Positions 51,005 through 55,364 of a DNA stretch of 64,000 nt are shown here, one piece after another. Source of the DNA: an uncultured Gammaproteobacteria bacterium (GTDB lineage Bacteria; Patescibacteriota; Patescibacteriia; Patescibacteriales; GWC2-42-12); assembly GCA_964431805.1 (NCBI GenBank), contig CAYSKV010000001.1, forward strand, positions 61,698-125,697, read 5' to 3'. How positions within the stretch are numbered: position 1 is the first letter of the stretch; each line of letters starts with the position of its first letter. A program made the position numbers and the translations under genes. The notes below the pieces were generated by a model. That model saw only the letters and a program-made list of their open reading frames with translations. It had not been told where the DNA came from and made no database searches.

Positions 51005-51154
51005 ATGCAAGGAATTTTTAAAACATTGTTTGTTTTGGGAGTAATAGTATTTTGTATAGTAGTTATTGCTTTATTTTTGCTTTTATTAAAACTTATACTA
51101 TTATTTAATCCAGAAATAAACATCTTCGGCATGTTAATCCAACCAATGCAATAA
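51005..51154 (+). CDS. Small hydrophobic peptide (49 aa), type-I-toxin-like
   Basis: Hand translation: MQGIFKTLFVLGVIVFCIVVIALFLLLLKLILLFNPEINIFGMLIQPMQ. Followed by a terminator. Below the ORF-track cut-off. Confidence 0.45.
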   Translation: MQGIFKTLFVLGVIVFCIVVIALFLLLLKLILLFNPEINIFGMLIQPMQ

Positions 51155-51178: not shown

Positions 51179-51217
51179 AGCGTCGCATAAGTTATATTGT
51201 GCGACGCTATTATATTT
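51179..51217 (+). terminator. Rho-independent terminator (plus strand)
   Basis: AGCGTCGCA (51179-51187) pairs with TGCGACGCT (51200-51208), followed by an A/T-rich tail. Confidence 0.65.
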
Positions 51218-51270: not shown

Positions 51271-51378
51271 TTATTTCTCATTTAATATATCTAAAGCTTT
51301 CTTATAAAATGGTTTAGATATTTTTTGCGCCTTAGATGATGAGATTCTGTTAAAATAATATTTTAATCTTTTTATCAT
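51271..51378 (-). CDS. Possible 35-aa basic mini-protein
   Basis: Hand translation: MIKRLKYYFNRISSSKAQKISKPFYKKALDILNEK. GAGGGGAG lies 10 nt upstream of the ATG. It starts 20 nt after the NERD stop. Confidence 0.3.
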   Translation of the reverse strand: MIKRLKYYFNRISSSKAQKISKPFYKKALDILNEK

Positions 51379-51398
51379 TTCTTTGCTTCTCCCCTCTT

Positions 51399-52022
51399 TT
51401 ACCTTCTTAACTCCCTTGCGCCTTGATTATGTAATTCGCGCATATCTTTATCTAAAATATTTGCATTAGTTAATATTCCATAAATTTCATCTCTCTCGGT
51501 ATCGGAAAAAATGACATTACTAAAACTTTCGATTTTGTTTACGACTTCGAATGTATGTCCAACCGAATCGGTTCCAGATATTTTTAATTTATCAGCATCC
51601 GGAAAAGCTACTAATGAAAAAATGCGCACATTAGAATATTTTAATTTTAATAGTTCTTCAACTGCTTTTATGTGGGCATAATTTTGTCGTAAGGGGTTAT
51701 AAAATCTTTCTTTGTGATGATATATAACCTGCGTCCAATATTCTTGATTAGCATCTCCAAAAATCCACCCTTGATATGACTTGGTTTCAATACAAAAAAT
51801 ACCATAATTTGAAACAACAATGTGATCAATCTGAGTTGTGTTAAGCCTACCATTGGACGGCAATAAAAGATCGTTCAAAACTTTATAATGAGCTACATCA
51901 AGTTGGAGTAATTTTTTAGCAACAAATTTTTCTCCTCTTTGCCCTATCAAATACGGCGACTTCTCAATAACGGAAATTACTAGAGCTACTACAATAATTA
52001 AGAAAATAATAAAATAAATCAT
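51399..52022 (-). CDS. NERD (nuclease-related domain) protein with N-terminal membrane anchor
   Basis: GQRGEKFVAKKL..TQIDHIVVSNYGIFCIETKSYQGWIFG..WTQ..NPLRQNYAH matches the NERD pattern. N-terminal helix IYFIIFLIIVVALVISVI. Confidence 0.75.
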   Translation of the reverse strand: MIYFIIFLIIVVALVISVIEKSPYLIGQRGEKFVAKKLLQLDVAHYKVLNDLLLPSNGRLNTTQIDHIVVSNYGIFCIETKSYQGWIFGDANQEYWTQVIYHHKERFYNPLRQNYAHIKAVEELLKLKYSNVRIFSLVAFPDADKLKISGTDSVGHTFEVVNKIESFSNVIFSDTERDEIYGILTNANILDKDMRELHNQGARELRR

Positions 52023-52033
52023 AAAATTTTATG

Positions 52034-52420
52034 TTATTCAAAATACTCCCCCAATATTTTATCTTTTTTAAATTTATTTATATTTCTCGTTACCTGTTTA
52101 TAAAAAATCGGGTAATGAATTCTTGTTATAATTCTACCCTTAAACCGCGAACGATAAGGCATCTTCTGATGATGCGCGGCTTCATGAGCTAAAGTTCTTA
52201 AAATAGAAGAAATTTTTTTAGGCTTTCTAAATTTTGGAGTAAAAATATCAATCGTAATAAGTCCGGTCTTTAAATTTGTCCTACCAATTATAAAACCGCG
52301 CCTGGTATTAACCTGATCGTCTTTTCGTCGCATCGGCCTAAATTTTAACCTACTAAAGTCAAGTAAATTTAAAGCGTGGTTGCAAAGATCTTGCACTTTT
52401 TGTTCAAAAAAAATTTCCAT
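52034..52420 (-). CDS. SprT-like / HExxH zinc-metallopeptidase-like protein
   Basis: 128 aa. LRTLAHEAAHH carries HExxH, preceded by RRGFIIGRTNLKTGLITIDI as in SprT-like domains. Confidence 0.45.
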   Translation of the reverse strand: MEIFFEQKVQDLCNHALNLLDFSRLKFRPMRRKDDQVNTRRGFIIGRTNLKTGLITIDIFTPKFRKPKKISSILRTLAHEAAHHQKMPYRSRFKGRIITRIHYPIFYKQVTRNINKFKKDKILGEYFE

Positions 52421-52426
52421 TATTTT

Positions 52427-52456
52427 ATTTTACCATTTATTTTTCAATATCGTCAA
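52427..52456 (-). promoter_or_regulatory. Promoter TTGACG-18 nt-TAAAAT placed for a leaderless or near-leaderless transcript
   Basis: On the minus strand the -35 box is at 52451-52456 and the -10 box at 52427-52432. The ATG at 52420 begins 6 nt after the -10 box. Confidence 0.45.
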
Positions 52457-52489
52457 AATAAAAAACCCGAGGTAAATTGTACCTCGGGG
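52457..52489 (-). terminator. Rho-independent terminator after glnA
   Basis: Minus strand reads CCCGAGGTA-CAATT-TACCTCGGG followed by TTTTTTATTTT. Confidence 0.85.
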
Positions 52490-52506: not shown

Positions 52507-53901
52507 TTAAAAATAATTTTTAATATCTTCTGCCGTAATTTCTCTGCAGAATCTTCTCCATTCTTCGTCGCCGAGCTTCAGTAAAGCATTAATAATAAAG
52601 TTTCCCAAACTTGACCTGAGCATCTTGCTGCCCTTCATAAGCAATAAAGCTTCAAGTAAATTACCGGGCAAGCTTAGCACACCTTCATGATCTTTATAAA
52701 GATTGCGCTTACGACGGCAAGATTTTAGGCGCAGTTTTTCTTTAATGCCCGCTAACCCAGCAGCCAGCATAGCGGCGAACGCTAAATAAGGATTGCAGGT
52801 CGGATCAGGCGCTCGATACTCAACCCTTATCTTATTTGTTCCTTCCGAATGGCCCCTGGCTAAAGCAGTCCTATTAAGCCAATCGAAATACACATAAGTA
52901 GGCGCTTCTGCATCCGGCACAAGCCGCTTATAAGATATGGGTAAACGATTGGTTATAGCAGTAATATCCCTGGCATATTTTAACAGCCCGGCAATATAGC
53001 TCTCGCCCAACATCGACAGACAGTTCTTCCTTCTTTTGTCAAAGAAAATGTTCTTTGTTTCTTCGATTAACTCACCTTTTACTACCCGGCTGATAACTGC
53101 AGCGAGATTCTGATGCACATGCATACCGCTGCCATTTACATCTGCTTTAAATTTAGGTATAAAAGAAACTCGAAAACCATACTTTTTGGCAATGGCTTCG
53201 ACAACATACTTTATAGTCATCACACCATCAGCAATAGCCATAATATCCCCATGGCCAAAACCAATCTCATGCTGAAAGTCGGTCACTTCAGTATGGTATT
53301 TTTCTTTCTTCAAACCCATTACGCCCAGAAATTCAAGCATTTCCTTTAAAGCTTTATCTTCTCTTTCTTTAGGAGAAATGAAATAATGATTATTCTTTAT
53401 TAGTGGGTCAAGATAAATTTTTAAATAATCATATTCTTCAGGCACAAGCAAAAATTCAACTTCCGGCGCAAAATGAGCTTTTATTTTCTTGACGGTGGCT
53501 TTAGGATAGCGCCGCTGAACTTCTTTTTTCAGCGTTTTATTCATCTTTTTTGTCAGGCTTCTTAATACACCCCTAGGACATGCCTCAAAAGGTTCTAGAG
53601 GTGCTCCTTGTTTCTTCGGGGGGTAATAAATGTCGCATATTACCCTAGCAGTATCGGGAAGCCAAGGGATAGGGCAAAATGTAGAAAGATCTGGTACCAA
53701 AACCATATCGCTTTCGGTCGGCGGTATGATCTTACCAAAAACTGATGATCCATCGACGCTGGTTGTTCCTGTACCCAACAATTGTTCCGCCGTTACTGTA
53801 ACTTCCCTAATATTACCCTGGATATCCGTAAATTGACATTTAATAAATCTAATTTGCGGATATTTTATTAAAATCTCTGCCAAATTAATTTTTTGTGCCA
53901 T
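52507..53901 (-). CDS. glnA: Glutamine synthetase family protein (type I-like)
   Basis: NGSGMHVHQNL, SYKRLVPDAEAP, RAPDPTCNPYLAFAAML. Sample lines give ~40-52% GC. Strong SD AAGGAGGAAAAGGGGGATT before the ATG. Confidence 0.8.
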   Translation of the reverse strand: MAQKINLAEILIKYPQIRFIKCQFTDIQGNIREVTVTAEQLLGTGTTSVDGSSVFGKIIPPTESDMVLVPDLSTFCPIPWLPDTARVICDIYYPPKKQGAPLEPFEACPRGVLRSLTKKMNKTLKKEVQRRYPKATVKKIKAHFAPEVEFLLVPEEYDYLKIYLDPLIKNNHYFISPKEREDKALKEMLEFLGVMGLKKEKYHTEVTDFQHEIGFGHGDIMAIADGVMTIKYVVEAIAKKYGFRVSFIPKFKADVNGSGMHVHQNLAAVISRVVKGELIEETKNIFFDKRRKNCLSMLGESYIAGLLKYARDITAITNRLPISYKRLVPDAEAPTYVYFDWLNRTALARGHSEGTNKIRVEYRAPDPTCNPYLAFAAMLAAGLAGIKEKLRLKSCRRKRNLYKDHEGVLSLPGNLLEALLLMKGSKMLRSSLGNFIINALLKLGDEEWRRFCREITAEDIKNYF

Positions 53902-54022: not shown

Positions 54023-55270
54023 TTACGGCAAATACTCTAATGGATTAACCGGAATGCCGTTTAAACGAACTTCAAAGTGCAAATGAGGCCCGGTTGTGAG
54101 AGAACCAGCTCCGTTTGTGCCCGGCATACCACCTGAAAGGCCGATAGTTTGCCCTTGGACGACATATTCGTCTGGTTGTACATATATTTTAGATACATGG
54201 CCGTAAACCGTGGCCAAACCGTCGCCGTGGACTATCATAATATAGCTATAACCTTTACCAGCATTTTTAGCTATAGCGACATAGCCCGAAGCCGCGGCTC
54301 TTAAAGTACTGCCTTGAGCCGCTCTAATATCAATGGCCGGATGTTCAAAAATATAACGATAAGGATAGTCGGGATCATGAAAAGTCGCCATGACCATATT
54401 TTTTGTTACCGGCCAAATAAAACCAGCGTCATTAAATTCTAACTTTTCTCCAGAAAGTTTTGATAATTTAGCTCTCATGGCCCTCTCTAAGCTTACAATA
54501 TTAGACTCGGCTTGCTGTTGTTCTTGTTTAGCTAATTTTAATAATCTTTGATACTCTCTTTCCGAAGATCTCGTCTGATCTAAAAGATATGATTTATTTT
54601 CCTGCTCTGAAGCTAAACCAACTTTTTTATTTTCAAGATCTACTTTTAGCCCGGATAACTCCCTTTTCTTTTCAGTTAAACTTTTTTGCTGATCTTCTAA
54701 ATCTTTTTTATATTGTTTTATAGTTTCAAGGCTAGAAGCTATTTCTTTATTTATATCTTCTAAATATTTAACTTGGCTGACAAAATCATTTAGGGTGCCA
54801 TTAATCAGTAATATTTCTAAAGTAGATTTATTGTCTTGCTCTTGCATTAATCTAAGGACTGAGGAAATATGCTCTTTTTGTTTTAAAATTTGCTCATCCT
54901 TAGTTTTTATTTCAAGATTGACTTTATCTATTTCTAAATTAGTTCGATCAATTTCAATTTGCGCGCTTTCAATATCTAAAGCGGCTTTAGCTAAACGATT
55001 TTCCAAAATAGCTAATTGATTATTTAAACTGGCTTTTTCACTCTGCTTTTGCTTAATCAAACCCTCATAAACAGCTTGCTGTTCTTGTATCTTCTTTATT
55101 CTGTCTTGCTGAGCTTGAATATCTTGATTTATCTGCTTAATCTCATCATTATTATCAATCACAACCTGCCCATAAGAAAAATTAGACGCATTTAAAAATA
55201 GGCCTAAAAATAATATAGGTATGATTAACTTAATAATTTTCTTTACCCCATTAAATTTTATATTTTCCAT
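54023..55270 (-). CDS. M23-family peptidoglycan endopeptidase with N-terminal coiled coil
   Basis: C-terminal HGDGLATVYGH..GPHLHFEVRLNGIPVNP. A long Q/E/K-rich coiled coil and a signal anchor. Alternative start at 55294. Confidence 0.88.
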   Translation of the reverse strand: MENIKFNGVKKIIKLIIPILFLGLFLNASNFSYGQVVIDNNDEIKQINQDIQAQQDRIKKIQEQQAVYEGLIKQKQSEKASLNNQLAILENRLAKAALDIESAQIEIDRTNLEIDKVNLEIKTKDEQILKQKEHISSVLRLMQEQDNKSTLEILLINGTLNDFVSQVKYLEDINKEIASSLETIKQYKKDLEDQQKSLTEKKRELSGLKVDLENKKVGLASEQENKSYLLDQTRSSEREYQRLLKLAKQEQQQAESNIVSLERAMRAKLSKLSGEKLEFNDAGFIWPVTKNMVMATFHDPDYPYRYIFEHPAIDIRAAQGSTLRAAASGYVAIAKNAGKGYSYIMIVHGDGLATVYGHVSKIYVQPDEYVVQGQTIGLSGGMPGTNGAGSLTTGPHLHFEVRLNGIPVNPLEYLP

Positions 55271-55364
55271 AATTTTAAACCCGCTAAATAACATATGTGG
55301 ACTATTACTATTTTAACTAATTAAATTAGTAATTATTTAACGGGGTGAATAATATTATTATAAC
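55245..55364 (-). promoter_or_regulatory. TGTTATAAT promoter plus leader hairpin ACCCCGTTAAAT / ATTTAATGGGGT enclosing the M23 start codon
   Basis: On the minus strand the -10 box is at 55356-55364, the 5' arm at 55334-55345, and the 3' arm at 55245-55256 inside codons KFNGV. One G:U pair; 77-nt loop. Confidence 0.5.

Follow-up and report, generated by a model that had tools for sequence, protein, structure and literature searches.

A compact mini-zincin and NERD gene unit next to a candidate dif site in a Patescibacteria genome

The subject of this analysis is a compact group of three open reading frames (ORFs) on the minus strand of a 64-kb stretch of contig CAYSKV010000001.1, which is called the window throughout. 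The window has a G+C content of about 33%, and the homologs of its proteins are found in Patescibacteria, for the most part in Falkowbacteria. An earlier note, made from the sequence alone, had described the group as an operon between a promoter and a terminator, which comprised genes for a SprT-like HExxH protein of 128 amino acids (aa), a membrane-anchored NERD nuclease-like protein of 207 aa, and a possible basic peptide of 35 aa, and had proposed that it might be a defense, abortive-infection or toxin-antitoxin-like module. In the following, the 128-aa protein is named p128, the 35-aa ORF p35, and a nearby 49-aa ORF p49. The elements of the unit, in the direction of its transcription, are:

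52427-52456, minus strand: putative sigma-70-like promoter TTGACG-18-TAAAAT with a TG-extended -10 region, 5' of the p128 gene
52034-52420, minus strand: p128 gene, clade-specific and conserved; 128 aa, soluble, isoelectric point 10.6, SprT/Wss1/selecase-like minimal zincin with HExxH and H102
51399-52022, minus strand: NERD gene, strain-variable and accessory; 207 aa, transmembrane helix 1-19, PD-(D/E)xK nuclease with E31/D66/E79/K81
51271-51396, minus strand: 3' relic of an HD/DUF4202 gene; it contains the 35-aa ORF (51271-51378), which starts at an internal Met
51180-51207, no strand assigned: dif-like site GCGTCGCATAA-GTTATA-TTGTGCGACGC, with an 11-6-11 layout and near-palindromic arms; it is the hairpin 51179-51208 with its 12-bp stem

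The three minus-strand ORFs are indeed present, with gaps of 11 nucleotides (nt) between p128 and NERD and of 20 nt between NERD and p35, and the sequence TTGACG-18-TAAAAT at 52456-52427 ends 6 nt from the ATG of p128. With 291 homologs of p128 and 625 of the 207-aa protein, the two longer ORFs are real genes, while p35 is called as a gene by the gene caller of no source. There is no terminator between the p128 and NERD genes, and the two are probably transcribed together in this genome.

The p128-NERD pair and the origin of its packing

The p128 or NERD loci of relatives that were compared with the window are labeled L001 to L061. L001-L009, which represent five lineages, were obtained by exact protein look-up with p128. 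A further 40 p128 loci are GTDB species representatives and were located with an alignment of 36 close p128 sequences (A2); distant members of the family were collected in alignment A3. The contigs L058-L061 carry an identical NERD protein, stem from the same strain as the window, and have the same layout. Linkage was judged from neighborhoods of about 6 kb around each gene.

A NERD gene was found within this distance of p128 in none of the 40 GTDB species loci, and it is also absent near p128 in L001-L010 (five further lineages). Likewise, p128 is absent from the five NERD neighborhoods L011-L014 and L055. Three relatives, namely L015 (p128 97% identical), L006 (91%), and the more distant L017, can be aligned with both flanks of the stretch of about 51399-52033, i.e., the NERD gene, and it is precisely this stretch that they lack. 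Adjacency of p128 and NERD was seen only in the window strain (L058-L061) and in L056/L057, which restricts the pairing to one small sub-clade. The comparison of gene neighborhoods, which the earlier note had suggested as a check, thus revealed that the pairing is not conserved and that the two genes are essentially unlinked elsewhere.

In L056/L057, p128 (96% identical over the part that is present) and NERD (81% identical) are separated by an insert of 345 nt and, behind it, a degenerate copy of the p128 3' end; NERD is followed by an intact gene for a 185-aa HD/DUF4202 protein, the hairpin, p49, and ftsQ. The copied part comprises approximately the last 30 nt of p128 and lies, together with the insert, in L056 202-572; the insert carries, on the opposite strand, a Cys-rich ORF of 60 aa.

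The same two loci clarify the nature of p35, which is 86% identical to residues 151-185 of their HD/DUF4202 protein. The match to the DUF4202 profile (Pfam PF13875; HD is PF01966) reaches into this segment of the L056 protein. Compared to L056, the window lacks 436 nt, which represent the first approximately 144 codons of the HD/DUF4202 gene. The same relic directly follows p128 in L006, L015, and L017, and in L006 it is devoid of a start codon. The supposed 35-aa basic peptide is thus the deletion remnant of an HD/DUF4202 gene, and the ATG that looks like its start encoded an internal Met of the former protein. The possibility that p35 is a conserved micro-protein was considered and rejected, because it has no start in L006, is absent beyond the closest relatives, and is homologous to the HD/DUF4202 C-terminus.

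Ten promoter-like sites were found in the window, compared to 10.0 expected from shuffled sequences of this AT-rich stretch; the site upstream of p128 is therefore plausible, yet statistically not compelling. The closest relatives, L006 and L015, share the site, but in them the distance between the -10 region and the ATG of p128 is 25 nt longer than in the window. The loss of these 25 nt in the window took place between TAAAATAAA repeats. Because L006 and L015 have retained them, the leaderless geometry is specific for the window. Of the leaderless layout that had been deduced before, the spacing of 6 nt is present, but it is confined to the window, and the predicted leaderless start of the p128 mRNA is, judging from the aligned loci, a local accident that resulted from the 25-nt deletion.

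The description of the second protein as membrane-anchored and NERD nuclease-like proved to be correct. It matches Pfam NERD (PF08378) over the whole profile (positions 2-111 of 111; E 5.2e-34, 117.5 bits, cut-off 22.1). The residues E31, D66, E79, and K81, i.e., the E...D...ExK signature, as well as an NPLxQN motif are invariant in the 31 homologs over which conservation was computed. An AlphaFold2 (AF2) model (predicted local distance difference test, pLDDT, 91.7) matches the folds of the PD-(D/E)xK nucleases AF1548, Bax1, R2 endonuclease, SduA, McrC, Can2, and Hjc. A profile search against the PDB yielded a spurious transketolase stretch as the sole match, which was discarded. Residues 1-19 form a transmembrane helix, and the catalytic domain is predicted to be cytoplasmic because the residues past the helix are positively charged. 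Patescibacteria commonly have homologs of 207-240 aa (625 matches). The protein is an ordinary member of the NERD family with intact catalytic residues, and its gene is accessory. It would be a membrane-tethered, Mg-dependent nuclease that would act alone on nucleic acid at the membrane, most likely foreign nucleic acid, and a defense-type role appears most probable.

The five NERD neighborhoods outside the window differ from one another. They contain a type ISP restriction-modification-like gene (L011), toxin-antitoxin pairs (L012), an RHS toxin (L013), a ResIII helicase (L014), or a Cas4-like gene together with PDC-M30A (L055). Among them, PADLOC gave matches only for L055, and its Cas4-like gene and PDC-M30A were regarded as too little to call a defense island. 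With PADLOC-DB 2.0, no match was obtained for p128 and p35 of the window, and the NERD protein matched only partially, namely the N-terminal NERD part of PglW (E 4e-6); with MADS6 it reached 35.6 bits at a cut-off of 460. Partner genes of PglW/MADS6-type defense systems were not found near the unit in the window. The PADLOC check proposed in the earlier note therefore did not reveal a defense system, but domain-level NERD/PglW matches only.

Taken together, the locus is made of ordinary parts in a deletion-compacted, hypervariable terminus region, i.e., a new family in a known fold class, a NERD member, a pseudogene fragment, and a dif-like site. We consider it probable, at about 0.75, that the unit is a fortuitous transcription unit, which was compacted by deletions in the hypervariable stretch that separates a conserved gene from a probable dif site, and not a co-evolved system. 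An older array of p128, NERD, HD, and dif would be eroding, with the HD gene truncated in the window. Progressive deletion would have generated the series p128-NERD-HD (L056), p128-NERD-relic (window), and p128-relic (L006, L015, and L017), and the last three loci would have lost NERD together with the 5' part of HD. A deletion of 25 nt brought the promoter close to the ATG of p128, and read-through from this promoter into NERD would be a by-product of the packing, since deletions removed everything in between.

The proposal that p128 and NERD form a functional two-gene module, in which the nuclease at the membrane would be controlled or neutralized by the zincin, with the small basic peptide as a third component, would be in agreement with the tight packing, the single promoter, and the lack of a terminator between the genes. 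The same gene order in L056 and L057, the occurrence of NERD domains in the known defense proteins PglW, MADS6, and ZwsA, and the location of some NERD homologs near restriction-modification, toxin-antitoxin, or Cas4-like genes also fit this proposal. However, it is largely refuted by the distribution described above, i.e., the 0/40 species loci, the absence of NERD near p128 in all of L001-L010, the five NERD neighborhoods without p128, and the close relatives that are devoid of the NERD gene only. In addition, p128 is 65-93% identical among the listed close homologs and syntenic with housekeeping cell wall genes, unlike a mobile module, PADLOC detected no system, and the "peptide" is a gene relic. 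A module thus appears very improbable. A recent insertion of NERD as a single gene into the p128-to-dif spacer of this strain, maybe by recombination with a relative or via the dif hot spot, is also less probable than erosion of an array, but it has to be taken far more seriously. It would explain why one and the same junction without NERD is found in L015, in L006, and also in L017, which is more distant, and it is consistent with the hypervariability of the spacer within the clade, where pilins, a Xer-like gene, and other ORFs are found. Furthermore, dif regions are known to be integration sites of Xer-exploiting elements (PMC6744903). However, a Xer-exploiting element carrying NERD was sought, and neither a second dif-like site nor a flanking direct repeat bounds the gene. 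NERD precedes the HD relic directly in the window and the intact HD gene directly in L056, which is most easily explained by common descent followed by deletions, and the divergence of NERD between the window and L056 (82% nt identity) is similar to that of the flanks (86-90%). Loss rather than gain of NERD is, tentatively, the direction that we infer.

Several points speak against the fortuitous, deletion-compacted unit, which we nevertheless prefer. The adjacency of p128 and NERD recurs in a second lineage (L056 and L057, with a NERD protein of 81% identity), and an older linkage within the sub-clade is possible. Linkage was assessed on neighborhoods of about 6 kb only. The junction without NERD is common to three relatives, one of which, L017, is more distant, and a simple tree would favor a gain in the lineage of the window. 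As to p128, its score is below the cut-off of the Pfam SprT-like family (13.1 versus 25.6 bits), and sequence searches of the PDB were empty. Lastly, the M23 peptidase and PBP2, which are treated below, are extracytoplasmic, and the tie of p128 to these proteins is one of gene neighborhood. The general implication is that, in a reduced and AT-rich genome of the candidate phyla radiation (CPR), deletions can pack genes tightly and place them behind a shared promoter, and that such an arrangement need not imply a functional system.

The p128 family and its gene neighborhood

The close homologs of p128 (291, with 65-93% identity among the matches listed) all have neither a name nor a Pfam domain. 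In a full HMMER scan over 1.84 billion representatives, the family amounted to no more than 16 clusters (50% identity). A profile search with A3 resulted in 607 matches, and among the 120 listed none is named and none has a Pfam domain. As far as these searches reach, the family is narrow and clade-specific, being restricted to few lineages of Patescibacteria. The only match of p128 to a described family was a weak one to Pfam SprT-like (E 0.09); no match was obtained in NCBIfam, PADLOC, or a PDB profile search.

Nevertheless, the label "SprT-like HExxH" holds at the level of the fold. The motif LAHEAAHH is present, and the AF2 model (pLDDT 84.9, predicted template modeling score 0.78) consists of an N-terminal helix, a small sheet, an active-site helix (residues 70-85) carrying the HExxH, a hairpin, and a C-terminal helix. 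In a Foldseek search it matched Wss1 (5xbv; probability 1.0, TMq 0.58, root mean square deviation 3.2 over 115 columns) and selecase (4qhj; probability 0.99), with an overall selecase/Wss1 probability of 0.94-1.0, although the E-values of the matches to solved structures are only about 0.01-0.05. SprT-family and IrrE-like metallopeptidases were matched among viral models. The absence of a metalloprotease fold, which the earlier note had named as a possible objection, was thus not observed, and p128 represents a new, unannotated family inside a known fold class. H79, E80, H83, and H102 are invariant in A2; among the distant members in A3, E80 is invariant, H79, H83, and H102 are conserved to at least 90%, and H84 varies. 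H79, H83, and H102 are presumed to bind zinc, with E80 as the presumed catalytic base. The protein is soluble and strongly basic, with an isoelectric point of 10.6 and 29 Lys and Arg residues in 128 aa.

The neighborhood of p128 is conserved. In L001-L009 the order is gltX, the gene for an M23 peptidase, and p128, followed by convergent ftsQ-like, FemAB, DegT, and Mur ligase genes. An M23 gene is located upstream and on the same strand in 29 of the 40 GTDB species loci, in which gltX, M23, and p128 likewise converge on p49 and ftsQ. The two genes are often separated by no more than 25 nt or overlap, which implies co-transcription in these relatives. The most distant members of the family (44-52% identity; L041, L043, and L050-L053) are preceded by mreB-mreC-mreD-PBP2 and followed by mnmA. 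Therefore, p128 is attached to operons of the peptidoglycan machinery in two clades, to M23 in one and to mreBCD-PBP2 in the other.

This distribution suggests that p128 would be a zinc peptidase in the cytoplasm, which would act on a partner tied to cell wall growth or division. An extended version, which we regard as tentative and rather doubtful in its entirety, would be that these mini-zincins, cytoplasmic and specific to Patescibacteria, are dedicated components of the machinery for growth and division of the peptidoglycan layer. Their genes would be co-transcribed with that of an EnvC-like M23 peptidase (Falkowbacteria-type) or with mreBCD-PBP2 (Paceibacterota-type), and the proteins could, for example, act from inside as proteases or regulators of cell wall enzymes. 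If this is true, p128 would be a previously unrecognized player in CPR cell envelope biology. Separately, the invariant hairpin would be a dif site served by a single Xer recombinase. As the main alternative, p128 might be a bacterial counterpart of the SprT/Wss1 proteases of DNA-protein crosslinks; this zincin would bind DNA and clear it of proteins trapped there covalently, for example topoisomerases or the Xer recombinase, and its cell wall neighbors would be incidental. Wss1 and SprT-family proteins are its best structural matches, its extreme basicity would be expected of a nucleic acid-binding protein, and in this clade its gene adjoins the dif-like site. WLM, SprT, and minigluzincins, moreover, share one common structural organization (PMC4559962). 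However, p128 scores below the SprT-like threshold, and in two distant clades the kept neighbors are M23 or mreBCD-PBP2 and not repair genes. SprT and Spartan have extra zinc-ribbon or DNA-binding domains, which p128 is devoid of, and in the distant clade no dif-like site was detected near p128. A role in crosslink repair is therefore unlikely. In either case, an unannotated, narrowly distributed mini-zincin family that stays with cell wall operons in two clades of Patescibacteria is a modest lead.

The dif-like site and the variable regions around it

The hairpin at 51179-51208, which had been taken for a terminator, is present, but it behaves as a conserved dif-like DNA site and not as an RNA hairpin. 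The site occurs once in the window, with none expected by chance. All of its 29 nt are identical in the loci of 15 fetched relatives, which represent more than one lineage, and the spacers around it are otherwise unalignable. Three further loci have one to three changes, which are uncompensated and confined to one outer arm, and the loop and the central 12 nt never vary. The invariant center and the uncompensated changes in the outer arm point to a protein-binding DNA site rather than to an RNA stem. The invariance of the loop and the lack of compensation among the stem changes, together with the absence of a U-tract from the minus-strand RNA, led to the rejection of an ordinary intrinsic terminator. 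The site is located at the peak of the cumulative GC skew, where the skew switches and gene blocks converge. From these features the hairpin is probably a dif site, i.e., a site for the resolution of chromosome dimers, and would thus mark the replication terminus. It may also stop two convergent transcripts.

A conserved gene for a Xer-like tyrosine recombinase of about 320 aa (Pfam Phage_integrase and SAM-like N-domain) lies in the p128-to-p49 spacer of 19 fetched, more distant relatives (L005, L019, L024-L028, L030-L036, L038, L040, L046, L047, and L049). A related site, ACTTCGCATAA-TGTAGA-TTAAGCGAAGT, is found beside this gene in L025, L033, and L040. Loci with the site of the window type have no recombinase gene in the p128-to-p49 spacer, and a xer gene was not found in the 64-kb window. 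The two arms of the site are nearly identical, which suggests a single recombinase, and the site is probably served by one enzyme.

The site is flanked by p49, and the unit is preceded by three further features:

51005-51154, plus strand: p49 gene, 49 aa with a very hydrophobic core, directly downstream of the ftsQ-like gene and convergent with the unit
52466-52488, no strand given: glnA terminator, strong, 3' of the glutamine synthetase gene and just before the p128 promoter site
52507-53901, minus strand: glutamine synthetase gene (Pfam), between the M23 gene and p128
54023-55294, minus strand: M23 peptidase gene (Pfam; coiled coil and LytM), the usual direct upstream partner of p128 in relatives

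The observation that the ftsQ-like gene is not followed by ftsA or ftsZ is correct for the window, and the convergent arrangement with ftsQ is kept across the clade. p49 was detected by tblastn with 44-100% identity in most relatives and is recognized by no family library; it probably represents a genuine small membrane protein. A scan of the whole window with Rfam at gathering thresholds gave no match.

The spacer between p128 and the dif-like site is hypervariable in the clade and contains pilins, the Xer-like gene, and other ORFs in relatives. This fits a hot spot at the terminus and would explain the coming and going of accessory genes such as NERD and HD. In four loci (L009, L016, L018, and L023) the spacer 3' of p128 contains G+C-rich, repeat-like segments, e.g., GTCATTGCGAG...CTCGCAATGAC, which may be small repeated elements and are absent from the window.

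The junction of M23 and p128 is a second hot spot of insertion. Between one and four type IV pilin-like genes with an N-terminal GFTLIELLVVISIIG motif are present there in L021, L022, L026, L027, L029, L037, and L047. Among the p128 loci, the glutamine synthetase gene is found at this junction in L006, L015, the strain contig L058, and the window only. The glutamine synthetase of L015 (L015 4506-5861) is only 49% identical to the protein of the window, although the flanks are 84-94% identical at the DNA level. This contrast suggests that one allele replaced another or that the gene was inserted here independently.

As a putative marker of the terminus, the candidate dif site might be of use in orienting and closing genomes of the Falkowbacteria type, and it could explain why the spacer is a hot spot for variable genes.

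Comparison with known systems

The layout of the dif-like site, 11-6-11, is that of the dif site of Escherichia coli, GGTGCGCATAA-TGTATA-TTATGTTAAAT, and its left arm GCGTCGCATAA agrees with GGTGCGCATAA at 8 of 11 positions (E. coli sequence: PMC3325230). It differs from known Xer/dif systems in that the window has no xer gene and that the two arms are nearly identical. Like Xer/dif sites in general, including those of the single-recombinase systems XerH/difH, XerS/difSL, and the archaeal XerA/dif, it is present in a single copy at the switch of the skew.

Intact HD/DUF4202 proteins differ from the window, which has kept the last approximately 35-49 codons only. Because the HD catalytic part is gone, p35 is a relic and not a member of this family.

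The NERD protein shares its organization, an N-terminal transmembrane helix followed by a cytoplasmic NERD domain, with SmdA of Staphylococcus aureus, a protein of staphylococcal division with a degenerate NERD domain (PMC9040797). However, several of the residues that are conserved in NERD domains are absent from SmdA, which is a core protein and itself conserved, whereas the NERD gene of the window is strain-variable. The domain is also shared with ZwsA, PglW, and MADS6, and the E...D...ExK signature is intact in the protein of the window. The NERD domain of ZwsA has been reported to be an RNA endonuclease that is used against RNA phages; SmdA and ZwsA are the few cases from which the literature provides a function for NERD. 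In contrast to PglW, MADS6, and ZwsA, the protein of the window has no kinase, helicase, or S4 domain. It belongs to a subfamily of stand-alone NERD proteins with a transmembrane helix that is widespread in Patescibacteria, and a new mechanism is not indicated here.

The protein p128 resembles Wss1, SprT/Spartan, and the minigluzincins (selecase, abylysin) in its size class of about 110-130 aa and in the succession of an N-terminal helix, a small beta-sheet, the HExxH helix, and a C-terminal helix, yet it has no significant sequence similarity to them. Its putative third ligand, H102, is located 19 residues past H83, beyond a beta-hairpin, and this spacing is shorter in Wss1 and Spartan. In contrast to Wss1 and SprT/Spartan, it is devoid of accessory SUMO, ubiquitin, zinc-ribbon, or DNA-binding domains. 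And, in contrast to all of these proteins, the minigluzincins included, the neighbors of p128 are genes of the cell wall.

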